Shown: positions 1-13,241, counted from the stretch's first letter. The stretch is 16,257 bases of DNA from a virus (IMGVR_UViG_2939127364_000003); one strand, 5' to 3'. Notes: generated by a model not told the origin, from the letters alone. A program made the numbers and translations.

Positions 1-19
1 CTATTTGATAAATATTAAA

Positions 20-1315
20 TTAATTTTTCATTGCTTCGTTATGGGGCATGGTTGGGGCAAACTCGCTTAACTGTGTATTTAACAAAGCTACCTGTGCATT
101 ATTGTTTTCAGACATCCATTTTCCGTATACCTGAAATACCATTTGCGCATCTGCATGGCCCATCTGGTTTGCTATAAATGCCGGGTTAGCACCAGCTGTC
201 AGCGACCAGCAGGCATAAGTATGTCTCGACTGATATGATTTTCGATGGCGGAGTCCGGCACGTTTTATCGCTGCGTCCCACATCTGCCTTATTGAGTCAA
301 CGGTAAAATGGTCACCATAATTTTTTACTCTCGCTGACACTTCAGGTTGAAAAACAAAGGTGCATTTTTGTTTTTCTGTTCTGCCATACTCTCTGAGGTG
401 AACATCAATGATATGCTCTTTGCTCAGTCTCGTTAATGTCATCTGGCTCCGGAGAGCGTCGATTGCTGGCTTAATAAGATGAATGACCCGATTGGTTCCC
501 GCCTGTGTTTTTGGTACCGTGAAACGGTCTTTTGCTAAATTTCTCCTGATCATCATTGTTCCATTTTTCAGATCTATGTCCTCCCATCCAAGTGCACACA
601 GCTCACCAGGGCGAACGCCAGTATAAACAGAAACACACCATAAATTTTTTGCTTGCTGATTTCTGCACGCATCGATAAGACGGATAAATTCCTCCCGCGA
701 AAGAGGATCCGGAATGGTTCTTGATTCCTTTAATGGCGAGATCCCCTTAAGCGGATTATCTGGCAGGTAACCGTTATCAACACCAAACTGGAACACGGCG
801 TTAAGATTTGTCATGTAATTATTTACAGTTACAGCCGATCGCCCTGGTTGTGTAACAATATAGTTACTTTTGGGGATCTGGTATCCAGTCAGTAGCTCTT
901 TACGAACCTCCAGTAATTTTTCTTTATTAATCGATGAGGCAAGATTTTTTTCACCGATTATGCTCAGGATATTTTTGATGACGGCACGGTATGTGTTGAG
1001 TGATGTTTTGGCGACTTCAGTTTCTTTCAGTGCCAGAAATTTTTCAGCCAGTTCTTTTATGGTTAAATCTTGTCGGGCCTCACCAAATTTTTCCAGATTG
1101 CGTGAGGAGGGAAACTGTTTTGCATAGTCGAAAACACCAGTTTTTATTGCGTAACAAACAGAGGAGCGTAGTTCACCTGCAACGCGCCTGTTTTTTGCTG
1201 TGTCAGGAACCCCCAGATTTTCCCTGACTCTTACGCCTTTATAAACAAACCAGATACGTAATTTCCCTCCATGGTTTTCCACGCCTGTCGGATATTTCAT
1301 TTCAACTTCTCTCAT
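20..1315 (-). CDS. int: Tyrosine-type site-specific integrase (lambdoid prophage Int), 431 aa; the start could instead be the internal Met at 1300
   Basis: Intact ORF. C-terminal region has the tyrosine-recombinase box II pattern (SRHTYACW ... MGHADAQMVFQVYGKW), giving the R/H/Y catalytic residues. Sits at the prophage end with its 3' end toward the window edge and a small xis-like gene immediately upstream. Confidence 0.9.
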   Translation of the reverse strand: MREVEMKYPTGVENHGGKLRIWFVYKGVRVRENLGVPDTAKNRRVAGELRSSVCYAIKTGVFDYAKQFPSSRNLEKFGEARQDLTIKELAEKFLALKETEVAKTSLNTYRAVIKNILSIIGEKNLASSINKEKLLEVRKELLTGYQIPKSNYIVTQPGRSAVTVNNYMTNLNAVFQFGVDNGYLPDNPLKGISPLKESRTIPDPLSREEFIRLIDACRNQQAKNLWCVSVYTGVRPGELCALGWEDIDLKNGTMMIRRNLAKDRFTVPKTQAGTNRVIHLIKPAIDALRSQMTLTRLSKEHIIDVHLREYGRTEKQKCTFVFQPEVSARVKNYGDHFTVDSIRQMWDAAIKRAGLRHRKSYQSRHTYACWSLTAGANPAFIANQMGHADAQMVFQVYGKWMSENNNAQVALLNTQLSEFAPTMPHNEAMKN

Positions 1316-1334
1316 TAGTTAGTGTGGCTTTTAG

Positions 1335-1586
1335 TCAAGTAAGATGACGTCTTGGTCTCGCTGATGCCTGGCGCTCAATCCAGCGATCAATTTCTTCCAG
1401 GTTGTAAAAGCATGGACTGTTATCCCATGGCATACCGTCATGAGCGACATGCTTATATTCCCTTCCTTCCATAAACGATTTTTCCCGGGCCTTTTTTAAC
1501 GTACCTTTTTTTATTCCTTTCAGCGCAATTAACTGCTCTTCGGATACCCATTTGCCGGGAGAGACAATCATGATTACTTCGCTCAT
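1335..1586 (-). CDS. xis: Putative excisionase-like small protein (83 aa)
   Basis: Small basic ORF directly upstream of int on the same strand with a 19-nt gap, the typical int-xis arrangement. The functional call is positional; I do not recognise a specific motif. Confidence 0.55.
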   Translation of the reverse strand: MSEVIMIVSPGKWVSEEQLIALKGIKKGTLKKAREKSFMEGREYKHVAHDGMPWDNSPCFYNLEEIDRWIERQASARPRRHLT

Positions 1587-1658
1587 CGATTTCTTTATCT
1601 CTTACATCAGACGAGCGCCGGTTGCAGAATACCAGTCACAACCGGCGACAGTTGAACA

Positions 1659-4130
1659 TTAAGAATCAGCCTGACTCGGGATCAGTTTTTGCCAGATAAC
1701 TGAAACGTATTTTGCCTGGTAACGGGCGTCATCAAGTGCATTATGGCGCTCACCTTCGAATGGAATAGCCGTTCTGGCATCGAAGTCTATGGCTTTCCCC
1801 AGCTCAACGATTGTGCGTACATCGCGATCGTTGTAGTAACGCCACGGGCAGGGGATCCCCTGCCGTTCGTATGAACGGCGCAAAATCGTGTTGTCGAAGT
1901 TGGCTCCATTTCCCCAAACCTGAACAAAAAATTCACCGGAGTTTTCGTCGATAAATTCCCGCAATTGTAACAGTGCATCATCTAACGGGATTTCATCGGT
2001 CATAATGGCAGATTGCGCTTCGCGTGATTGCTTAAGCCACCATTTAATGGTGTTCCGATCAATGACTCCGCCAGCAGTTTCCAGATCGATAGTCTTACTA
2101 AATTCCGGTCCCATATCTCCGGTTTGCGGATCGAAAAATATTGCACCTATTGAGATGATCGGGGCATCAGGATTTTTTCCCATGGTTTCAAGGTCGATCA
2201 TTAGATGGTCACACGTCCTGCTGGTGGATGTGATTTCGTGATGACCGTTCACCTTAATTGAGTGATCTGCCGTCTCGCCAGTTTCATTATCGCTATTGTG
2301 ATGCTGATTGCCGCCAGTGTTCTCCTTGTGTGGATGTTCAGCGCCTTCCATTTCCTCCGGATCATCTTCCTGAACTTCAACCTGATATTCTTCATCGAAT
2401 GTTTCTTGATATGTTGCGTCGCCCATCACCGCGCCACAATCAGGGCAGTTGCCGCCGCCGGTCTGACCGCAGGCGGTGCAGACTTTTTCCACTTCCTGTT
2501 GCGCCACTGGTTCAGGCTGTTTCGTTTCTGGCTCGTTTTGTAACGCATTTGTGCTGTTTTGTTCCGCTTTTTGGTAGTTCCGTTCCGATTTATGCTGGTT
2601 CTGGTTCACAGAATCGCGGGTCTGGATCCCCTTAACCCATTTCGGATCATTCGGGTCACTAATCCCTTCAACAAATTCACCACGTGATGCAGCAAGCAAC
2701 TTATCGGCGTCAGGCTGGCTGATATTGGCTGCCTGCATAATTTTGTTTACTTCGTCAGCGGTAACTTTTATCGGCTCTGGTTGTTCTGAATCTTCAGCGG
2801 TATCTACATTTTGCGGTAAGCCCGTGTATGTGCCATTTTTTCGGGCAAAATATTCTTCTTTTGTGATTTCAGTGGCGCCAGCAGCCAGTGCCTTATCCAG
2901 ACCAGAAAGTTTGTTTGCGCGACCGTATTTTTCTCCGTCCTTATCTGCGAAGAGGAAATAGAACGGCCCCTCACGCTCTACAGATGGTTCAGCTTCCGGC
3001 GCGGTTTCATTTTTTGGGATATCAGATACCTCAGTTTCCACTGCATCAGTTTGTGTTTCTGATGACTGGAGAACATCAACAGTGCCCAGGTCTGTTTCTT
3101 CATTCTCAAACACGCCCTTTGTCGTCAGGTATTCGCAGATATATTTGTTCAGTGCTATGGGATCTTTGTGAATGTCGATCGGACGCTCACGGACAAGGCC
3201 AAAAATAGTCTGGCGGTCGTAGCGAAGGGCATCAGGCTGTTTGCGCATTGATGCCGAGATACGCTTCCAGTCTTCGCGGTCGTTGTCGATAACTTCTTTT
3301 TTTGCCCAGCGATGGATGCTGCCGTCAATGTTTCCGGCATCCACATCACCAGGCCAGAGAGCGTAGGCCAGTTCGTCATCCAGTGTTTTCCATGTCTGCT
3401 TGTATTCGCGATGAATGGCAGCAATGACCGGGCTGATTTTTCCTGTTGAATTTTCAGTGTACTGTTGATTGGCTCTGGCGCGGGCGAGATCAACAACAGA
3501 CGTGTATTTTCCGGTTTCCTTGCGTTCACCTTCGCGACGTTTTTTCCAGATGCGCATCTCTGCCTGAATTTCGGGCCATTTAGCACCAGGAATACATTTA
3601 TGCTTAACCCACCCAATGGCGTGCAACTTAAGCTCCGGATACATGGCGTTAACTTCTGGCATTTTCATCAACGCTTCAACGATATGTCCGTCGAATGTTG
3701 CCATGTCTTCCTGCAACAATTCCTGTGCGCTAATAACCATATCAACGGTGATGTTTTCACATGTGTCGAACTTAACCATGACAGCGTTCTGTACTTCAGG
3801 GGCCAGCTTGTCAAAAGTGACGTTCATCGGATCGGATTCAGTCTCAACCGGGACAAAAGAAGCAGACTCCTCATCCCAGCGGTTTTCCTGCATATATTCA
3901 GCATCCCATGAATCGAGGGCAGGGCGGGGTATGCCAGGTTTATCCTCGCAGACAATAAATTTATAAGCGCAGTCCTGAGCAGCCGGATAATGTTCCAGGA
4001 ACTGCCAGTGAAATTTTGCTCGAGCACGGCGTTCGTCGCCAGCTTCAATGGCTGTGGCTACAGCCACAGCGCCTTCTTCCCTTGTTGCCAGTTCGTCAGG
4101 AATAGCGGCGCAAATAAAGACTTTACTCAT
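1659..4130 (-). CDS. ydfE: RecE-like prophage exonuclease (YdfE-like, 823 aa) with a central CxxC...CxxC zinc-ribbon and a C-terminal DnaQ-like DEDDh 3'-5' exonuclease domain
   Basis: Long intact ORF. Central segment (DKLLAASRGEFVEGISDPNDPKWVKGIQTRD ... CTACGQTGGGNCPDCG) matches what I remember of Rac RecE. C-terminus carries DEDDh motifs (MIDLETMG as Exo I, HNALDDARY as Exo III). Position between xis and ydfD matches the Qin layout. Confidence 0.85.
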   Translation of the reverse strand: MSKVFICAAIPDELATREEGAVAVATAIEAGDERRARAKFHWQFLEHYPAAQDCAYKFIVCEDKPGIPRPALDSWDAEYMQENRWDEESASFVPVETESDPMNVTFDKLAPEVQNAVMVKFDTCENITVDMVISAQELLQEDMATFDGHIVEALMKMPEVNAMYPELKLHAIGWVKHKCIPGAKWPEIQAEMRIWKKRREGERKETGKYTSVVDLARARANQQYTENSTGKISPVIAAIHREYKQTWKTLDDELAYALWPGDVDAGNIDGSIHRWAKKEVIDNDREDWKRISASMRKQPDALRYDRQTIFGLVRERPIDIHKDPIALNKYICEYLTTKGVFENEETDLGTVDVLQSSETQTDAVETEVSDIPKNETAPEAEPSVEREGPFYFLFADKDGEKYGRANKLSGLDKALAAGATEITKEEYFARKNGTYTGLPQNVDTAEDSEQPEPIKVTADEVNKIMQAANISQPDADKLLAASRGEFVEGISDPNDPKWVKGIQTRDSVNQNQHKSERNYQKAEQNSTNALQNEPETKQPEPVAQQEVEKVCTACGQTGGGNCPDCGAVMGDATYQETFDEEYQVEVQEDDPEEMEGAEHPHKENTGGNQHHNSDNETGETADHSIKVNGHHEITSTSRTCDHLMIDLETMGKNPDAPIISIGAIFFDPQTGDMGPEFSKTIDLETAGGVIDRNTIKWWLKQSREAQSAIMTDEIPLDDALLQLREFIDENSGEFFVQVWGNGANFDNTILRRSYERQGIPCPWRYYNDRDVRTIVELGKAIDFDARTAIPFEGERHNALDDARYQAKYVSVIWQKLIPSQADS

Positions 4131-4223
4131 TTTGTTTTAACCTCATGACAGATTTAAGGATGAACAAATCCCTGCCATTGCTGGCATATAAGAATGAAAC
4201 CGGATATTTATTACGGAACTGTT

Positions 4224-4415
4224 TTAAAGACCTGCCGGGATTTCGATATTATCCTGGTGAATAACTTTATCGACCGGGTAACAGTTACCGGGAATTTTCT
4301 GTTCGGTTGCTGCAGTCATACACTCCTGCATTGTCCTGTGAACACTGACTGCAATATCAACTGGCTCTCCGGAAACAAGAAAAACTGTCAGAACAAGCGC
4401 AAATGCTGAATTCAT
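4224..4415 (-). CDS. ydfD: YdfD-like small protein (63 aa; Qin YdfD is reported to cause lysis when overexpressed), start taken at internal Met MNSAF
   Basis: ORF with hydrophobic N-terminal segment (MNSAFALVLTVFLVSGEPV). Its ATG overlaps the dicB stop in an ATGA motif (4412-4415), suggesting translational coupling. Matches remembered YdfD. Confidence 0.65.
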   Translation of the reverse strand: MNSAFALVLTVFLVSGEPVDIAVSVHRTMQECMTAATEQKIPGNCYPVDKVIHQDNIEIPAGL

Positions 4416-4600
4416 TGTGCACATCCTTTTGGCATCAGACGTAAACGAGCCAGCATTGAAACAATGCATATTTTATTTAATAGCTCCCGTTCTTGTTTTC
4501 TCTTGTTAATGGCATCTTCAGTAAATACAGGGTTACTGATAGTGACACCAATTTCAAAACAACCTTCAGACGTATTAACGTTTGGTAATAACGTTTTCAT
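4412..4600 (-). CDS. dicB: DicB cell-division inhibitor (62 aa)
   Basis: Translation from the internal Met gives MKTLLPNVNTSEGCFEIGVTISNPVFTEDAINKRKQERELLNKICIVSMLARLRLMPKGCAQ, matching remembered DicB. GAGGA Shine-Dalgarno 9 nt upstream. Lies directly downstream of DicF. Confidence 0.85.
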   Translation of the reverse strand: MKTLLPNVNTSEGCFEIGVTISNPVFTEDAINKRKQERELLNKICIVSMLARLRLMPKGCAQ

Positions 4601-4770
4601 TATCGCGTCCTCAACAATGAATTTTGTGATGCAGTGCCTGGTGCCTCCAGGTGACGTTAACCAGTTAACAATTAACGCCGGATACAGAGAATCCACCCAT
4701 AACACTGTTTTTGGTTTTAACTGTTCCGCGTGCGCTTAGCCGCATTCACCGCATCACAAAATTCACTTTA

Positions 4771-4827
4771 AAAACGGCGGCAGAGCAGTCACGGAGTAAA
4801 ACTGATACCGCCAAACGTCACCAGAAA
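4771..4827 (-). ncRNA. dicF: DicF small regulatory RNA (ends approximate)
   Basis: Minus strand reads TTTCTGGTGACGTTTGGCGGTATCAGTTTTACTCCGTGACTGCTCTGCCGCCGTTTTT, matching remembered DicF including the 3' GC stem and T-run. Located between the upstream operon gene and dicB as in Qin. Confidence 0.8.
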
Positions 4828-5102
4828 ATTGATAACAGAGGGCGTTGCAGCGGGGTTGTCACTTAAGCGTATGGTCAACCTGACAACTCGGTGTCCTCAA
4901 CGGGGAAGGAATAACCCCGCCATACTTACCGCCGCGCCATTTCGCGGGTTGCCACAACCGGAAGCGCACGGTCGAATTAAATTTAACGACACCGTACAGT
5001 GAGACGAACTTCGCCGTGCGCTTTCGTGTTGTGTGCCTGCTTTTAACCACGTCAGGCGAGGTGGTATCCTTCTTATTCCGAATAACCAAGAAGGAAATCT
5101 AT

Positions 5103-5303
5103 ATGACTAAAGAAGAATTTGTCTCTTATATTTTTGATAAAACGGTTGAAATGTATGCCGCTACTTACGGGTCCTGTAATCCTCTGAATAAACCAGAGGG
5201 GAAAGATGATTTCGACAAAATTTACCGCTTCTTGGAGGACCGCTATATCAAAAGGTTAGAGGACGCAGGGATCAAATCCCCAGTGAAGTCACCATTGTCC
5301 TGA
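5103..5303 (+). CDS. Hypothetical 66-aa protein on the opposite strand inside the dicB operon
   Basis: ATG at 5103 preceded by AAGGAA with a 6-nt spacer. Translation MTKEEFVSYIFDKTVEMYAATYGSCNPLNKPEGKDDFDKIYRFLEDRYIKRLEDAGIKSPVKSPLS is of normal complexity. 3' end overlaps the convergent 5272-5649 gene by 32 nt. No family recognised. Confidence 0.4.
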   Translation: MTKEEFVSYIFDKTVEMYAATYGSCNPLNKPEGKDDFDKIYRFLEDRYIKRLEDAGIKSPVKSPLS

Positions 5304-5649
5304 GAACTTGCAGGACGTCATGATCGTAACTTCCATCCAAACCGCGACGGCAAATTGCTTCTCGTATTACCGGAAGCAGTTCGCTGGAAATCTCGGTGCA
5401 TATTTCACCTGCTAATACGCCTGGCTCAAGTGAGAATATTGGTGAACTTACGGTCTTGGTCTCGACAGTTTCAGAGTCAGTGCCAACATTATAAAGCTCA
5501 ACGAAAGCGGTCTTGATTTTCCGGGCCAGATCTTTTGCTGGCTCGCTTGCAATATCTTTCCCGATTTCTCGCAGCACAGAATGCAATGTATGAGCTGCTG
5601 TTTTCTGTACATCAGACGGTAAATCTTTAAATTCCATCGTCAGCCTCAT
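5272..5649 (-). CDS. Hypothetical protein (125 aa from ATG 5649, or 121 aa from ATG 5637) in the position of Qin ydfB/ydfC
   Basis: ATG at 5649 overlaps the ydfA-like stop (TGATG, 1-nt overlap). The alternative ATG at 5637 has a GAGG 6 nt upstream. Protein is of normal complexity and I do not recognise it. Confidence 0.6.
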   Translation of the reverse strand: MRLTMEFKDLPSDVQKTAAHTLHSVLREIGKDIASEPAKDLARKIKTAFVELYNVGTDSETVETKTVSSPIFSLEPGVLAGEICTEISSELLPVIREAICRRGLDGSYDHDVLQVLRTMVTSLGI

Positions 5650-5801
5650 CAGTCAGTGTTTCTGGCTAACCAGCAACGCGCGCCAGATTCGGTTTTAAAC
5701 GTTTTGCTTTTGGTATATGTCATCGCGGTGAACGTACCGTCCTGGTTGGGGAACACGCCACATACCAGAGATTCGCTGTTGCCAAGATCGATAGTATCCA
5801 T
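5649..5801 (-). CDS. ydfA: YdfA-like small protein (50 aa)
   Basis: Internal-Met translation MDTIDLGNSESLVCGVFPNQDGTFTAMTYTKSKTFKTESGARCWLARNTD matches remembered Qin YdfA. GAGG 7 nt upstream. First gene downstream of dicA on the same strand. Confidence 0.7.
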   Translation of the reverse strand: MDTIDLGNSESLVCGVFPNQDGTFTAMTYTKSKTFKTESGARCWLARNTD

Positions 5802-5877
5802 GCTGACCTCATTTCCCCTTAACGCCGGGGTAGCGGAACTGTTTGCTGAGAACACCGTGCGGTGTGTTGATGGAGGT

Positions 5878-5930
5878 AATTTAGTTTTCTCATTATTTTT
5901 CGTCAAGGTTTTTTGATGAGAAAACTCAAG
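5878..5930 (-). promoter_or_regulatory. Putative dicB-operon promoter with DicA-operator-like sites
   Basis: On the minus strand TTGACG (complement of 5901-5906), a 17-nt spacer, then TAAATT (complement of 5878-5883). Imperfect palindrome GATGAGAAAACTCAAG at 5915-5930 just upstream, and a further TGAGAAAACT half-site inside the spacer. Confidence 0.45.
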
Positions 5931-5993
5931 TATTGGCGCAAGATAAAGCCAATACATTGAAATGTAAGGCTTTAAAATTTTGTGAAGGGATGA

Positions 5994-6401
5994 TTATTGA
6001 TGCTTGTTGCGTTTGCGAGCCTCTAATAGCTCGGTGAACAGGCGATTAAAATTCTCAACGCGGGCGCGGAGTTCGCTGAGTTGTGCTTGTTGCTCTGATT
6101 TAGGAAGTGCGCGATACAAACGCAGCATCTCTAACTCATCTTCCGATAAGTCTAAGGCACTATCGAGTGAAACAGGGGGAGCTGGTGTTTTGTCCTCGTC
6201 GCCAAACAGTATCCAGGTTGGTGAACATTGCAATACCTCGGCGAGGCGATGCAAATTTTGCCCACGCGGGGCTGTATGGTCACTTTCCCATAATGAAATT
6301 GATGAGCCAGATACGCCAGCAGCTTTGCTTAAACCGTTTTGACTTAAGCCTACCTGCTTACGTCTTTCTCTAATGCGTTGACCTAAAGTTTTCTCGTTCA
6401 T
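5994..6401 (-). CDS. dicA: DicA-like HTH (XRE-family) repressor, 135 aa from internal Met MNEKTLGQ
   Basis: HTH region (QRIRERRKQVGLSQNGLSKAAGVSGSSISLWE) and C-terminal segment LQCSPTWILFGDEDK...RARVENFNRLFTELLEARKR match remembered DicA. Divergent from a Cro-like gene. Confidence 0.85.
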   Translation of the reverse strand: MNEKTLGQRIRERRKQVGLSQNGLSKAAGVSGSSISLWESDHTAPRGQNLHRLAEVLQCSPTWILFGDEDKTPAPPVSLDSALDLSEDELEMLRLYRALPKSEQQAQLSELRARVENFNRLFTELLEARKRNKHQ

Positions 6402-6422
6402 ATTTAGATATCTTAATAACCC

Positions 6423-6466
6423 TTGACTTGAGATTCCTTGAGTGATTAGCATTGAGAAAACTCAAT
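6423..6466 (+). promoter_or_regulatory. dicA-dicC divergent control region with a perfect 16-bp palindrome ATTGAGAAAACTCAAT (6451-6466)
   Basis: TTGACT at 6423-6428, about 18-nt spacer, TAGCAT-like -10, with the palindrome over the predicted dicC start region. Repeated TTGAG half-sites at about 10-bp spacing. Same motif as the site upstream of the dicB-operon promoter. Confidence 0.5.
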
Positions 6467-6478
6467 ATTGGAGGTGCG

Positions 6479-6706
6479 ATGTTTAAATCAGACGTAATTA
6501 ATTTTTACGGTACGAAAGCCAAAGTAGCGAAAGCTGCTGGCGTTGACCCATCTGCTGTTTCTCAATGGCAAGAGCTGGTTCCTGAAGGTCGCGCGATGCG
6601 TCTACAGGAGGCATCTGGCGGGGAGCTTCTGTATGATCCCAAGGTTTATGACGAATATCGTAAGACGAAGCGGGCGGGGCGGTTGAACAATGAAAATCAC
6701 TCCTGA
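6479..6706 (+). CDS. dicC: DicC-like Cro-type regulator (75 aa, start at internal ATG 6479)
   Basis: GGAGG at 6470-6474 four nt before ATG 6479. C-terminal VPEGRAMRLQEASGGELLYDPKVYDEYRKTKRAGRLNNENHS matches remembered DicC. Divergent from dicA. Confidence 0.8.
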   Translation: MFKSDVINFYGTKAKVAKAAGVDPSAVSQWQELVPEGRAMRLQEASGGELLYDPKVYDEYRKTKRAGRLNNENHS

Positions 6707-6948
6707 ACAGGCTCGTGAGGCTCTGGATGCCTGGATATGTCGACCAGGAATGACACAGGAGCAGGCGACGATATTAATCACTGAAGCATTCTGGGCTTTG
6801 AAAGAGCGCCCGAACATCGATGTTCAGCGTGTCACAGATGAAGGTGGCGCGGTTGATCAGCGAGCGCTTGGCGTTAATCGAGTGAAGATATTCGAACGCT
6901 GGAAGGCTATCGACACCAGGGATAAGCGTGAAAAGTTCACGGCGCTAG

Positions 6949-6971
<23 letters not shown>
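6690..6971 (+). CDS. YdfX-like hypothetical protein, 3' end interrupted by IS5 (native coding sequence ends at 6948; last 8 codons are IS5-derived)
   Basis: ORF overlaps the dicC 3' end by 17 nt. Reading frame runs into the IS5 left inverted repeat and stops at 6969-6971. If IS5 is removed the frame would continue about 6 codons into the sequence after 8144. Confidence 0.55.
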
Positions 6972-8143
<1,172 letters not shown>

Positions 8144-8201
8144 TTAGCACTGTTAAAAATTTAATCCTTAACCGGAGGGATTTCTGCACCCTCAGAACAT
8201 C

Positions 8202-8230
8202 AGGAGGCCGCCCGAAAGGGCGGTAGTTAA
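8202..8230 (+). promoter_or_regulatory. Shine-Dalgarno plus GC hairpin (GNRA loop) immediately upstream of the 8231 ORF
   Basis: AGGAGG (8202-8207), then stem CCGCCC (8208-8213), loop GAAA, stem GGGCGG (8218-8223), then 7 nt to ATG 8231. The hairpin would bring the SD to working distance from the start codon. Confidence 0.35.
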
Positions 8231-8368
8231 ATGCGAAAGTTTAAAATAATTATTGAAACGGGAATAGCCGGTGGAGATTTCGAGGATGAATTCGAAGTGG
8301 ATAATGATGCGACGCCTGATGAAATACATGACGAAGCAAAAGATATTTTCTTTAACTACTGCAATTAA
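8231..8368 (+). CDS. Hypothetical small acidic protein (45 aa)
   Basis: MRKFKIIIETGIAGGDFEDEFEVDNDATPDEIHDEAKDIFFNYCN; below the ORF-track size cut-off, found by manual translation. Preceded by the SD-hairpin element. Confidence 0.4.
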   Translation: MRKFKIIIETGIAGGDFEDEFEVDNDATPDEIHDEAKDIFFNYCN

Positions 8369-8405
8369 TCATATCACGAAATAAAAGACGAAGAGGAAGA
8401 ACAAA

Positions 8406-8582
8406 ATGGCTGATTTTGGTTCAACTAAATACAACGTCGGTTTTGAAGAATGGCATGAACTGTTAATGGACTATGCAGAGTTACGTGGTGGCAGTGCTGC
8501 TGATGCTGAAGCATGGCGTGATGATTATGAAGCAGGAAAAACTCCGGTCGAAGCATATTGTGATGAGTGGGGCGATGAATGA
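8406..8582 (+). CDS. Hypothetical small acidic protein (58 aa)
   Basis: GAAGAGGAAG Shine-Dalgarno ending 5 nt before ATG 8406. MADFGSTKYNVGFEEWHELLMDYAELRGGSAADAEAWRDDYEAGKTPVEAYCDEWGDE. Stop overlaps the next ATG in an ATGA motif. Confidence 0.5.
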   Translation: MADFGSTKYNVGFEEWHELLMDYAELRGGSAADAEAWRDDYEAGKTPVEAYCDEWGDE

Positions 8583-8701
8583 GCGAGGTTAATTATCAGG
8601 AAGGGCATGAAACGGCGGGGCAAGCAAAAACAGTGGCATGGCGATATCGCTACGTGAAAAAAAGGCGTTACGGACTTTCAGGGGAAGTAGTGGTCTGGTG
8701 A
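8579..8701 (+). CDS. Hypothetical small protein (40 aa), possibly the 5' part of a frameshifted longer gene
   Basis: ATG overlaps the upstream stop (ATGA). MSEVNYQEGHETAGQAKTVAWRYRYVKKRRYGLSGEVVVW. A protein-like open frame with no start codon continues in another frame from 8691 to 8894. Confidence 0.3.
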   Translation: MSEVNYQEGHETAGQAKTVAWRYRYVKKRRYGLSGEVVVW

Positions 8702-9064
8702 CTGGAAATATGTACCGAAAAAAGAGGATTGTAACGATAGGCCGAACTATGAAATTCAGGCCTTATTCACTGCCCCGCCAGTCCCGGTTACATCAGAAGA
8801 ACTGGTTAAAGCTGTGCACTTTTATGAACAACTAAAACGCGAAAATCCACCAGCATCCGGAAACCTGATTACAGGTTCCCAGATAAGGCAATGAGCTACC
8901 TGGCGCAGAACGGGCTGATAAGTATGGGGAATGTTTTACGATGAATATTTAGACTAAAGAGTTTGTAACGCTATGTAAGTGATTTTTTCTGGTTTAGATA
9001 TTTATATGTCCGGCTAAATTGAGGTGTGTTTAAATGTTATTGCACATTGATTGTAGGGGGAATA

Positions 9065-9244
9065 ATGAAAAACGCATTGCAGTTTTTGTTTGTTGCGTTC
9101 TGGTTGTTCGCATCATGTATGCCCATCATCTTCACAGCAAGGTATATGGAAAAAGTTGATGTTTTGATATTAATATTTGGATATATAAATGCCCTTTTTT
9201 TAGGGGTGTTCATGGCGGTCATGTGCATTGAATACTGGCGGTAA
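9065..9244 (+). CDS. Small membrane protein with two predicted hydrophobic helices (59 aa)
   Basis: AGGGGG at 9055-9060 four nt before ATG 9065. MKNALQFLFVAFWLFASCMPIIFTARYMEKVDVLILIFGYINALFLGVFMAVMCIEYWR. No family recognised. Confidence 0.5.
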   Translation: MKNALQFLFVAFWLFASCMPIIFTARYMEKVDVLILIFGYINALFLGVFMAVMCIEYWR

Positions 9245-9501
9245 ATACAGCGAACTCCATTGGTTTAGTTGGATATTTACTGTGCTGGACAAAACGGTTT
9301 GCGGGGAAATCTTAGTTAAGTAGAATGACTGCGGGTGCTTGAGGCTATCTGCCTCGGGCACGAACACCAACGGCAGGTAGAGAAAAGCCCCAGTTAACAT
9401 TACGCGTCCTGCAAGACGCTTAACATTAATCTGAGGCCAATTTCATGCTAGACACATGTAGGTTAGCCTCTTACGTGCCGAAAGGCAAGGAGAAGCAGGC
9501 T

Positions 9502-9657
9502 ATGAAGCAGCAAAAGGCGATGTTAATCGCCCTGATCGTCATCTGTTTAACCGTCATAGTGACGGCACTGGTAACGAGGAAAGACCTCTGCGAGGTACGA
9601 ATCCGAACCGGCCAGACGGAGGTCGCTGTCTTCACAGCTTACGAACCTGAGGAGTAA
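9502..9657 (+). CDS. hok: Hok/Gef-family type I toxin (51 aa); a 70-aa in-frame upstream extension begins at 9445
   Basis: MKQQKAMLIALIVICLTVIVTALVTRKDLCEVRIRTGQTEVAVFTAYEPEE matches the Hok/Gef family (remembered HokD/RelF). AAGGAG 9 nt upstream. Structured 3' region and terminator follow. Confidence 0.85.
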   Translation: MKQQKAMLIALIVICLTVIVTALVTRKDLCEVRIRTGQTEVAVFTAYEPEE

Positions 9658-9726
9658 GAGACCCGGCGAGGGAGAAATCCCTCGCCACCTCTGATGTGGC
9701 AGGCATCCTCAACGCACCCGCACTTA

Positions 9727-9757
9727 ACCCGCTTCGGCGGGTTTTTGTTTTTATTTT
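9727..9757 (+). terminator. Rho-independent terminator downstream of hok
   Basis: ACCCGC-TTCG-GCGGGT stem-loop followed by TTTTTGTTTTTATTTT. Confidence 0.6.
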
Positions 9758-9876
9758 CAACGCGTTTGAAGTTCTGGACGGTGCCGGAATAGAATCAAAA
9801 ATACTTAAGTAGCGCGCAGGGATAAGAGGGATGGTCCCTTAAAGGGGAGAGCTAATTATCCGGAAGGATTCTGATG

Positions 9877-10933
9877 GGCTTTGTTGAATAAATCAGATTT
9901 CGGGTAAGTCTCCCCCGTAGCGGGTTGTGTTTTCAGGCAATACGCACGCTTTCAGGCATACCTGCTTTCGTCATTTTGTTCAGCGCTCGTACCAGGGCCA
10001 TAGCCTCCGCAACCTGACCATCGTAGTCACGCAGCGTCAGTGAACCCCCGAACAGCTGTTTTACCCGGTACATCGCCGTTTCCGCTATCGAGCGACGGTT
10101 GTAATCTGTTGTCCATTTCCACCGCGCATTACTCCCGGTCATTCGCTGATTAGCCACTGCACGGTTACGGTCTACATATTCACCGGGCCAGTAACCCGCA
10201 CCTTTTCGGGGAGGGATAAGCGCGCTGATTTTCTTACGCCGCAGTTCATCGTGACATAGCCGGGTATCGTAAGCGCCATCGGCGGCGGCTGACCTGATTT
10301 TCCGGTGGGTTTGCCGGATTAACCCGGGGAAGGCCTCTGAGTCCGTAACGTTGTTCAGCGACAGGTCAGCGCAGATGATTTCATGTGTTTTACTGTCAAC
10401 GGCGAGATGCAGCTTACGCCAGATACGGCGGCGTTCCTGGCCATGCTTTTTGACTTTCCACTCGCCTTCACCGAAGACCTTCAGCCCGGTGGAATCAATT
10501 ACCAGGTGTGCGATTTCACCCCGGGTGGGCGTTTTGAAACTGACATTAACCGACTTTGCCCGCCTGCTGACACAGCTGTAATCCGGGCAGCGTAGCGGAA
10601 CGTTCATCAGAGAAAAAATGGAATCAATAAAGCCCTGCGCAGCCCGCAGGGTCAGCCTGAATACGCGTTTAATGACCAGCACAGTAGTGATGGCAAGGTC
10701 AGAATAGCGCTGAGGTCTGCCTCGTGAAGAAGGTGTTGCTGACTCATACCAGGCCTGAATAGCTTCATCATCCAGCCAGAAAGTTATGGAGCCACGGTTG
10801 ATGAGGGCTTTATTGTAGGTGGGCCAGTTGGTGATTTTGAACTTTTGCTTTGCCACGGAACGGTCTGCGTTGTCGGGAAGATACGTGATCTGATCCTTCA
10901 ACTCAGCAAAAGTTCGATTTATTCAACAAAGCC
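9877..10933 (-). mobile_element. IS903-family insertion sequence (IS5 family), complete at 1057 bp, no target-site duplication
   Basis: 18-bp terminal inverted repeats GGCTTTGTTGAATAAATC (9877-9894) and GATTTATTCAACAAAGCC (10916-10933). Length is 1057 bp. The 9-bp flanks ATTCTGATG and CATCTAACC do not match. Confidence 0.9.
9933..10901 (-). CDS. IS903-family DDE transposase (322-aa ORF)
   Basis: [91 protein letters not shown]... matches remembered IS903/IS102 transposase. Enclosed by the matching inverted repeats. Confidence 0.9.
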
Positions 10934-10962: not shown

Positions 10963-12660
10963 TTGACTGCGGATATAACATTAACGCCGAAAGATATTGG
11001 TACTTTAAATTCAGTAACGATGTCTTTCTCTGGCGGGGCTGGGTGGTTCAAACTGGCTACGGTTACCATGCCACAAGCGAGTTCCATCGTTTACATCGCA
11101 TTGATTGGTGGCGCTGGTTACAACGTCGGTTCCCCACATCAGGCAGGCATTTCAGAACTGGTTCTACGAGCAGGCAATGGAAACCCCAAAGGAATTACCG
11201 GGGCTTTGTGGAAGCGTACAGCCGTCGGATTAACGAATTTCGCCTGGATCAACACATCCGGCGATACATATGATATTTACGTTGAGATTGGCAATTATGC
11301 GACGAGTGTAAATATCCATTGGGATTGTACTGCAAATGCGTCAGTTTCTGTTTATACCTCGCCAACATATTCAGCGAGTAAGCCTTCCAGCGTTACCTAT
11401 GGTGTTGTTTATACGATGTATAGCTCACATCAGAAACCTACACCATCAGATATTGGAGCACTGCCAACAACCGGAGGAACAGTTTCAGGTCCGTTGTCTG
11501 TTACAGGTGGATTAACTGGTTCATTGAATGGTAATGCAAGTACAGCCACGAAATTGCAGACGGCAAGATCTATCGGTGGAGTTGTTTTCGACGGTTCTGC
11601 AAATATTAACCTTCCAGGTGTAAACACTACGGGTAATCAGAACACCACTGGTAATGCTGCAACTGCTACAAAACTTCAGACTGCAAGAAAAATATCCGGT
11701 GTTCCATTTGATGGTTCTACTGATATCACTTTAACCGCCGCGCATGTGGCTGCTTTTGCCAGAAGGGCAACGGATACATATGCCGATGCGGATGGGGGCG
11801 TTCCCTGGAATGCCGAATCAGGCGCTTATAAGGTCACCCGCTCTGGCGACAGCTATATTCTGGTTAACTTCTATACCGGAGTCGGAAGTTGCCGGACCTT
11901 GCAGATGAAGGCGCATTACAGAAATGGTGGTCTGTTCTACCGTTCTTCAAGAGACGGTTATGGTTTTGAGGAAGACTGGGCAGAAGTTTATACCTCGAAA
12001 AATCTTCCACCAGAAAGCTACCCAGTCGGCGCACCAATCCCGTGGCCATCAGATACCGTTCCGTCTGGTTATGCCCTGATGCAGGGGCAGACTTTTGACA
12101 AATCTGCCTACCCGAAACTTGCAGCCGCTTATCCGTCAGGCGTGATCCCTGATATGCGTGGCTGGACGATTAAGGGCAAGCCCGCCAGTGGTCGTGCCGT
12201 ATTGTCTCAGGAACAGGACGGCATAAAATCGCATACCCACAGCGCCAGCGCATCCAGTACTGATTTGGGGACGAAAACCACATCGTCGTTTGATTACGGC
12301 ACTAAATCCACGAATAACACTGGTGCGCATACCCATAGTGTTAGCGGTACGGCTGCTTCAGCCGGTGCACATACCCATTCGATGGCATTTGTTTCAGGTG
12401 GTTCCAGTGGTGCTCCGGGAAGTGGATCACCTGATTATTCTAAATACAGTGTTAACACTTCTTCTGCAGGCGCTCATACGCACTCTGTATCGGGTACTGC
12501 TGCAAGCGCAGGTGCACACGCACATACTGTAGGTATTGGTGCGCATACGCACTCGGTTGCGATTGGTTCACATGGACACACCATCACCGTTAACGCTGCT
12601 GGTAACGCGGAAAACACCGTCAAAAACATCGCATTTAACTATATTGTGAGGCTTGCATAA
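10963..12660 (+). CDS. stf: Side tail fibre protein, 5'-truncated by the IS903 element (565-aa ORF with TTG as first codon)
   Basis: Two tandem phage-tail-fibre repeats ([26 protein letters not shown] and [26 protein letters not shown]), repeated GAHTHS His-x-His motifs and C-terminal [22 protein letters not shown] typical of lambda Stf / T4 gp37-type tips. The frame is open back through the IS boundary and there is no credible native start. Confidence 0.8.
11531..11730 (+). repeat. Tandem coding repeat (phage tail fibre repeat) within stf
   Basis: Two copies beginning GGTAATGC..., each encoding GNA(S/A)TATKLQTAR...FDGS..., about 120 bp apart. Confidence 0.55.
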
Positions 12661-13241
12661 TGGCATTCAGAATGAGTGAACAAGCACGGACCATAAAAAT
12701 TTATAATCTGCTGTCCGGAACTAATGAATTTATTGGTGAAGGTGATGCATATATTCCGCCTCATACAGGTCTGCCAGCAAACAGTACCGACATTGCACCG
12801 CCAGATATTCCAGCTGGCTTCGTGGCTGTTTTCAACAGTGATGAGTTATCGTGGCATCTCGTTGAAGATCATCGGGGTAAAACGGTTTATGACGTGGCTT
12901 CCGGCGACGCGTTATTTATTTCTGAACTCGGCTCATTACCGGAAAATGTCACCTGGTTATCCCCGGAAGGGGAGTTTCAGAAGTGGAACGGCACAGCCTG
13001 GGTGAAAGATGCAGAAGCAGAAAAACTATTCCGGATCCGGGAGGCGGAAGAAACAAAAAACAGCCTGATGCAGGCAGCGAATGAGCATATTGCGCCACTT
13101 CAGGATGCTGTAGATCTGGAAATCGCAACGGAGGAAGAAAACTCGTTGCTGGAAGCCTGGAAAAAGTATCGGGTGTTGCTGAACCGTGTTAATACAACAA
13201 CTGCACCGGATATTGAATGGCCAGTAGCACCTATAGGGTAA
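12660..13241 (+). CDS. tfa: Tail fibre assembly protein Tfa (193 aa)
   Basis: ATG overlaps the stf stop (TAATG). C-terminal [31 protein letters not shown] is the conserved Tfa end of lambdoid and Mu-like tail-fibre chaperones. Confidence 0.85.

Follow-up and report, generated by a model that had tools for sequence, protein, structure and literature searches.

The viral sequence IMGVR_UViG_2939127364_000003 was analysed as a stretch of 16,257 nucleotides (nt), called the window here and the source of all coordinates below, which is a heavily deleted Qin/Rac-like lambdoid prophage of Escherichia coli. Directly downstream of an IS5 element, at 8144-8944, lies a group of small open reading frames (ORFs) that we interpret as a copy, now partly decayed, of an accessory module of three genes from the early operons of lambda-like E. 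coli phages; taken as a whole, including the reading of the hairpin described below, we give this explanation a probability of about 0.7. The first gene of the module encodes a DUF7167 protein and would be translated from a split ribosome-binding site: a GC hairpin between the Shine-Dalgarno (SD) sequence AGGAGG and the AUG would loop out 16 of the 23 intervening nt and shorten the effective distance between SD and start codon to 7 nt, in the manner of genes 38 and 25 of phage T4. That the hairpin brings AGGAGG to working distance, making this a bridged site of the T4 gene 38/25 type, is the part of the explanation to which our analysis gives somewhat better than even odds.

A conserved hairpin separates the Shine-Dalgarno sequence of gene 1 from its start codon

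The plus strand directly after IS5 has the layout that an earlier reading, made from the sequence alone (the sequence-only reading), had described: AGGAGG, a 6-bp GC stem with a GAAA loop, 7 nt and an ATG. The conserved intergenic sequence upstream of the SD, recognized from alignments and folds and called the type-A leader here, occupies 8144-8201. The SD itself, one of only three AGGAGG sequences in the window, lies at 8202-8207 and abuts the hairpin CCGCCC-GAAA-GGGCGG at 8208-8223, in which 8208-8213 pair with 8218-8223 to form an all-GC stem of 6 bp and G8207-U8224 is a possible seventh pair. A 7-nt spacer, TAGTTAA (8224-8230), which has stop codons in two frames, then leads to the ATG at 8231. 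The hairpin has a free energy of -12.4 kcal/mol and a pair probability of 0.98-1.0 in the ensemble fold, and it is the sole all-GC 6-bp stem in the 16-kb window, where first-order Markov simulations give an expectation of 0.28. Measured linearly, the SD and the AUG are 23 nt apart (8208-8230), which is above the limit of about 15 nt for direct initiation.

This geometry is kept in relatives. Among 131 distinct sequence contexts ahead of gene 1, which are not independent of one another, the hairpin is retained in 129, and 110 of these hairpins are fully paired (82 entirely through Watson-Crick pairs, 27 with one G.U pair and one with two). The SD adjoins the stem in all 129, AGGAGG itself is present in 113, and the spacer is 7 nt long in 128. 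The sequence of the spacer varies (TAGTTAA, TAGTGAA, TAATGAA, TAAACCA, TAACATA and others), as does that of the loop (GAAA, GGCA, GTCA, GAGA and TAAA). One lineage contains a G-C>A.C intermediate and, inside the same lineage, a compensated A-U pair. Changes of C to T in the 5′ arm, which retain a U.G pair, are found in 34 contexts, as against six contexts in which a G>A change in the 3′ arm leaves a C.A mismatch; within the limits set by the non-independence of the contexts, such an excess is as would be expected for selection on the plus-strand RNA. The sequence-only reading had likened the arrangement to the hairpin-bridged initiation sites of some T4 genes, and this likeness has held up: the hairpin is seen in nearly all contexts, and its geometry is equivalent to that of T4 genes 38 and 25.

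In T4, the hairpins of both split sites were shown to be necessary for initiation, and they shorten the spacing between SD and AUG from 22 to 5 nt in gene 38 and from 27 to 11 nt in gene 25 (Nivinskas et al. 1999; Malys and Nivinskas 2009; reviewed in PMC3014915). The gene 1 site resembles these in its overlong linear spacing (23 nt here; 22 and 27 nt in T4), in a stable hairpin lying entirely between SD and AUG (effective spacing 7 nt here; 5 and 11 nt in T4), and in being kept in close relatives and absent from distant homologues. It differs from them in belonging to temperate lambda-like phages and prophages rather than to T-even phages, in its short all-GC stem of 6 bp with a GNRA-type loop, which is known here from sequence alone, and in that one cassette serves two unrelated genes and is located at mosaic joints. 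As a split ribosome-binding site beyond the T-even group, the SD-hairpin is a good candidate. Were it shown to work as one, a rare initiation mechanism would gain another natural example, independent of the first and very common, and its position at mosaic joints would tie a translational signal to the exchange of phage modules; the part concerned, 28 nt long, is compact and easily tested by mutagenesis.

The same core precedes a second, unrelated gene

A 28-nt core, TC[A/G]GGAGG CCGCC[C/T] GAAA GGGCGG TA, precedes not only gene 1 but also an unrelated gene for a 72-aa (amino acid) membrane protein (phrog_1832; gp12 of ArgO145), where the spacer from hairpin to ATG is 6 nt. Two different sequences are found upstream of the core: the type-A leader, a 93-nt intergenic sequence of which the window holds an example, and a type-B leader, which is the end of a 70-aa gene. 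All four combinations of leader and gene occur, and the core is the only sequence common to them. When 1.6 Mb of related loci were scanned for the geometry of SD, hairpin and ATG, essentially these two genes alone were recovered, the other hits being two minus-strand matches at dubious ORFs; a third gene family with the SD-hairpin core did not emerge from two further pattern scans.

From this distribution we infer that the core probably also behaves as a recombination joint at which small genes are swapped. Clark and colleagues are said to have described, in 2001 and for HK620, linker or boundary sequences at the module joints of lambdoid phages. The core is like these in being a short conserved island at a gene boundary, with unrelated sequence on both sides in different phages, but unlike them in that the island coincides exactly with an SD and a structured element; this coincidence suggests that it is retained for a function and not for recombination only. 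A more far-reaching version of the bridged-site reading, possible at best in our estimate, is that the core is a portable hairpin-bridged initiation cassette which doubles as a homologous-recombination joint, swapping DUF7167 and phrog_1832 genes between early-operon positions, and that genes 1 and 2 may together represent two new acidic inhibitors, directed at a host factor or a defence system. If true, it would take the split SD beyond the T-even phages for the first time and, also for the first time, link one to genome mosaicism.

The 72-aa gene itself was located at L004 (4075-4321), at L044 (1408-1654) and at L222-L263. Its phrog_1832 annotation reads ‘released from the phage upon host infection’, and in 21 viral contigs the gene is truncated to 26 aa.

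Alternatives to the proposed bridged ribosome-binding site

Several observations weigh against a bridged site. One or two mismatches interrupt the stem in 19 of the 129 hairpin contexts, and a pair-count test of covariation gave no signal above shuffled controls, the stem being nearly invariant. The most diverged DUF7167 gene (64% identity) lacks the hairpin and has an ordinary GGGGAG-6 nt-ATG site, and three contexts have lost AGGAGG after recombination inside the 5′ arm. Together with the U that follows it, the 3′ arm reads GGGCGGU, which weakly resembles an SD in its own right, at 6 nt from the ATG, and folding of the type-A leader predicts an SD that is for the most part paired with CCCTC upstream of it. 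In the window, moreover, 58 nt separate IS5 from the SD downstream, which makes transcription of the cassette there uncertain.

One alternative is that the SD-hairpin core is mainly a recombination linker whose hairpin has no positive role in translation, initiation then relying on the weak GGGCGGU motif, on standby binding of the ribosome or on coupling. That the core is the sole sequence shared across the four leader and gene combinations, that a recombination breakpoint falls inside the 5′ arm in one lineage, and that formal covariation is not significant all speak for such a linker; what a pure DNA-level linker does not explain is the fixed geometry around the hairpin (0 nt on one side, 6-7 nt on the other), the strand-specific excess of C>T over G>A, or the variation of the loop with a retained stem, and we consider it unlikely. 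A linker role and a bridged-SD role are in any case not mutually exclusive. Less likely still, in our view, is a negative or stabilizing RNA element, in which the hairpin would act as a 5′ or intercistronic stabilizer, as a processing signal, or as part of a switch in which CCCTC gates translation. Within the type-A leader, GGAGGG (8174-8179) and CCCTC (8189-8193) can pair with each other, and CCCTC can alternatively pair with GGAGG of the SD (8203-8207); predicted accessibility of the SD follows whichever pairing forms, and this alternative could be a translational switch. The similar predicted energies of the alternative pairings, an SD with an unpaired probability of 0.03-0.11 in one fold context and greater freedom in another, and the great stability of the hairpin are all in keeping with an element of this kind. 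Type-B leaders, however, lack CCCTC and GGAGGG and yet keep the SD-hairpin, and the hairpin occludes neither the SD nor the AUG. Nor is it an intrinsic terminator: it has no U-tract, and there is no terminator-like site at 8208-8223. An Rfam scan of 8000-9900 returned no family match within 8144-8944 at E-values (E) up to 1 other than a chance-level small nucleolar RNA (8930-8995, E 0.32). The bridged ribosome-binding site is the reading that we prefer.

A scan for promoters and terminators found nothing on the plus strand of the cassette. A lambda boxB/nut site was dropped as an identity for the hairpin, its position being wrong and no boxA-like sequence lying upstream.

Intact relatives carry three overlapping genes

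The four ORFs listed by the sequence-only reading are present on the plus strand at 8231-8368, 8406-8582, 8579-8701 and 8891-8944, and ATGA is found at both 8579-8582 and 8891-8894. What comparison with relatives overturns is their description as a chain of four genes. Intact relatives have three overlapping genes, encoding a 60-aa DUF7167 protein (gene 1), a 58-aa acidic three-helix protein that is phrog_519-like (gene 2) and a 171-aa phrog_660 protein (gene 3), and the 40-aa and 17-aa ORFs of the window are fragments of the last of these, broken up by a frameshift, a nonsense codon and a deletion. The proposal of an operon coupled through ATGA motifs fared differently at its two sites. Gene 2 and gene 3 do overlap by 4 nt in the ATGA at 8579-8582, which is kept in 83 of 85 relatives, also where Ead/Ea22-like genes replace gene 3, and the intact gene 1 and gene 2 overlap by 8 nt (ATGGCTGA); the ATGA at 8891 is accidental, as discussed below.

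Gene 1 of the window (8231-8368, plus strand) matches Pfam PF23768 (DUF7167; E 2e-10) and phrog_1997, and encodes 45 aa with an isoelectric point (pI) of 4.05 and 13 Asp and Glu residues to 4 Lys and Arg residues. The sequence-only reading had taken the 45-aa ORF as it stands; the gene is real, but its length is not the ancestral one. Codon 46 (8366-8368) is TAA in the window and TAC or TAT in relatives, the ancestral 60-aa frame ended at the TGA at 8411-8413, and 60 aa are encoded by 84 of the first 88 gene 1 copies examined; by comparison of these sequences, the window allele is nonsense-truncated (TAC>TAA). Both forms score above the DUF7167 gathering threshold of 24.4 bits, the 45-aa form with 41 bits and the ancestral form with 55.1 bits, and the window form spans profile positions 1-52 rather than the full 1-60. 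An AlphaFold model of the 60-aa protein has a beta-beta-alpha-beta fold (predicted local distance difference test score, pLDDT, 78.5); judged by this model, truncation costs the protein its last 15 residues, comprising strand 3 and the acidic tail. The exact truncated allele occurs on at least 1,000 contigs, and the 45-aa form of gene 1 has become fixed in a cryptic prophage that is widespread. What RefSeq annotates as a 45-aa "DUF7167 family protein" is this nonsense-truncated allele, and the annotation is corrected accordingly. One further consequence of the nonsense codon is that the 8-nt overlap, and with it any coupling of ORF1 to ORF2, is gone in the window.

Gene 2 (8406-8582, plus strand) is intact. 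It encodes 58 aa (pI 4.05; 16 Asp and Glu to 4 Lys and Arg), has an SD-like GAGG at 8393-8396, and matches phrog_519 (E 5.5e-22), aligning to the C-terminal part of that profile only (positions 76-137 of 143); its predicted fold is a three-helix bundle (pLDDT 77). The ratio of nonsynonymous to synonymous polymorphism (pN/pS) across alleles is 0.12 for gene 2 and 0.17 for gene 1, values that indicate purifying selection and mark both as real genes. The gene 2 family is small, with 71 cluster representatives among 1.84 billion proteins. In Enterobacter prophages gene 2 occurs without gene 1, after Ead/Ea22-like genes, and lies either adjoining xis/int or after the O/P replication genes. An obligatory pairing of genes 1 and 2 is ruled out, homologues of gene 2 elsewhere following Ead/Ea22-like or exonuclease genes; the two are independent small accessory genes. 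A fusion of ORF1 to ORF2, or a programmed frameshift between them, is likewise excluded, as their junction has no slippery site. Longer proteins of the phrog_519 type, P0144 among them, seem to arise by read-through of another ORF that lies upstream. In P0144/P0010, from another E. coli lineage, an ORF upstream of the gene 2 homologue is either fused to it or continues into it by read-through; the N-terminus of this ORF (MPKYQINATIKKPGGGPVKWTHYSDFPMTAEECRKNF) is patterned like that of DUF7167 (MRKFKIIIETGIAGG...ATPDEI) but is basic, and the ORF may represent a second, divergent partner family.

The position downstream of gene 2 is a slot for different genes. Its occupants (phrog_660 proteins in 171-aa and 119-aa forms and Ead/Ea22-like proteins of 185-270 aa) have the ATGA junction and the codons for MSEI[ND]YQ in common, and the Ead/Ea22-like genes of other phages share these first codons and this junction with gene 3. 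A common start of this kind across the slot places a second mosaic joint a short way into the coding sequence from its 5′ end. Genes 2 and 3 are comparable to the phrog_519, phrog_660 and Ead/Ea22-like accessory genes of lambdoid early regions, and neither has a Pfam family.

Gene 3 is a pseudogene

The remnant of gene 3 extends over 8579-8944 on the plus strand, as seen from tblastn matches, from comparison with intact alleles and from RefSeq, which marks the whole interval as one pseudogene (‘frameshifted; internal stop’). Many relatives have an intact gene of 171 aa (phrog_660, E 4e-75). When this protein was compared with the window by tblastn, residues 1-28 matched 8579-8662, residues 27-91 matched 8658-8852 in the next frame, and residues 145-171 matched 8861-8941 in the first frame again, followed by the stop codon at 8942-8944; residues 92-144 (53 codons) are deleted. 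The +1 frameshift is at a run of seven A (8657-8663, plus strand) where intact alleles have six, and the restored gene 3 frame is then interrupted by a TAG (8688-8690, plus strand) that is CAG in intact alleles. The length of the run is polymorphic in relatives (L002, L003 and L005), which have A6 in the intact form and also A7 and A8; it is a hot spot of slippage that has inactivated the gene repeatedly. The intact A6 context, GTG-AAA-AAG, resembles the dnaX-type slippery heptamer A-AAA-AAG. Slippage at A7 would not rescue gene 3, since the TAG and the 53-codon deletion lie further downstream.

These lesions account for the two small ORFs. The 40-aa ORF (8579-8701, plus strand) is, by tblastn, the head of gene 3, with 28 authentic codons followed by 12 out-of-frame codons; it is basic (pI 9.6), so that the earlier description of the ORFs as small and acidic holds for ORF1 and ORF2 and fails here. 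The 17-aa ORF (8891-8944, plus strand) is the C-terminal tail of the gene (MSYLAQNGLISMGNVLR, compared with MDYLKRNGLISVEDVLR in the ancestral protein), and its ATG at 8891 encoded a Met in the interior of the ancestral 171-aa protein. The TGA within that ATGA is not in the frame of the 40-aa ORF, and the frame to which it belongs arose through the lesions. Since the 17-aa ORF is the tail of a dead gene, the ATGA at 8891 is, on the evidence of these alignments, coincidental and marks no gene junction. Neither the 40-aa nor the 17-aa ORF should be annotated as a gene.

Possible roles of genes 1 and 2

Profile and structure searches with the 45-aa and 58-aa proteins, which the sequence-only reading had envisaged, produced matches to DUF7167, phrog_1997 and phrog_519 and named no function; DUF7167 is a family without an assigned function. 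Foldseek searches of the Protein Data Bank (PDB) with the models of genes 1 and 2 gave best E above 1, and a search of BFVD returned only uncharacterised phage proteins of the same small family. PDB sequence profiles gave noise only (uL23, E 0.008 over 30 residues), NCBIfam gave no match, and the PADLOC defence models gave none at E up to 0.1 for genes 1-3 and the neighbouring small membrane proteins. In a search of the literature, DUF7167 and the RefSeq accessions were not mentioned in any paper.

Acidic inhibitors that mimic DNA include Ocr, ArdA, p56, Ugi and similar proteins. On the sequence-only reading the region would be an intact chain of four coupled small ORFs, and an anti-restriction or anti-defence function of this type was raised for the proteins as speculation. 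Genes 1 and 2 are like such inhibitors in being small and highly negative, both with a pI of 4.05; they lie in accessory early regions, adjoining Ead/Ea22-like, HNH, methyltransferase and toxin-antitoxin genes; and Foldseek lists the Ung inhibitor p56 and T7 Gp2 among the neighbours of ORF1, both non-significant at E above 1. They are unlike them in having no sequence similarity and no significant fold similarity to these or to any known anti-defence or DNA-mimic protein, nor significant similarity to characterised proteins generally; nothing beyond acidity speaks for the role. The chain itself is refuted by the intact relatives and by tblastn, one of its members is basic, and ORF2 is found without ORF1 in Enterobacter prophages. 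We regard this reading as very improbable. Our best guess is that genes 1 and 2 encode small modulators that bind host or phage proteins and are made early in infection.

A prophage reduced by insertion sequences and deletion

Chromosomal DNA of E. coli strain 13P460A (L001) is 99.96-100% identical to the window, the cassette region at 100%, and its gene order there is integrase, excisionase, exonuclease, ydfD, dicB, a helix-turn-helix repressor, Cro and a YdaT/cII-like gene, with hokD further on. The window matches L001 over L001 positions 1-6908 and 9001-10733 only, with 2,092 bp missing at IS5, and this loss comprises the 3′ part of the ydaT/cII-like gene, the O replication gene, a DUF977 gene and two small ORFs. 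IS5 (6949-8143, plus strand; 100% identity to annotated IS5 copies) lies directly upstream of the cassette. The tetranucleotides beside it are non-identical (CTAG vs TTAG; window 6945-8147), which fits an IS5-linked deletion and not a simple insertion; together the sequences indicate that an IS5-associated deletion took out the replication genes of the prophage.

A copy of IS903B is present at about 9877-10933, with its transposase on the minus strand (9933-10901), and the cassette sits in the 1.7-kb island bounded by the two insertion sequences. IS903B interrupts the prophage just before rem. Beyond it, at 10963-13241, are a tail-fibre fragment with Collar, Phage_fiber and gp37_C domains and a tail-fibre assembly gene; as these follow straight after the break at IS903B and rem, most of the late region in between is missing.

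Cassette DNA is carried by about 2,570 of 5,426 complete E. coli genomes and by several phages, among them Shiga toxin (Stx)-converting phages. The module is intact in, for example, ArgO145 and vB_EcoS-689R5, and ArgO145 has the type-B leader. A species-level scan of genomes found the cassette only in Shigella and in one metagenome-assembled genome (MAG) that is a probable contaminant, and so provided no distant leaders for the analysis of covariation. The MAG is labelled Collinsella sp., and the copy of the cassette on one of its scaffolds (L086, 3 kb) is 95% identical to that of E. coli; this scaffold is almost certainly an E. coli binning contaminant.

Features downstream of the module

An ORF of 59 aa follows on the plus strand at 9065-9244, with a GGGGG/AGGAGG SD 5 nt upstream, and its predicted product is a membrane protein with two helices (MKNALQFLFVAFWLF...). 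Pfam, PHROG and PADLOC gave no match to it, and its exact sequence occurs on at least 1,000 contigs. RefSeq leaves it unannotated in strain 13P460A (L001), and a phage record has an opposite-strand ‘hornerin’ ORF at this place. Further along are a full-length match to the Rfam sok family (RF01794, 107.8 bits) at 9333-9507 and the hokD toxin gene at 9502-9657. After hokD, a terminator-like hairpin with a T-run lies at 9726-9743 and is overlapped by a sub-threshold isrK-like match at 9666-9747 (E 0.005).

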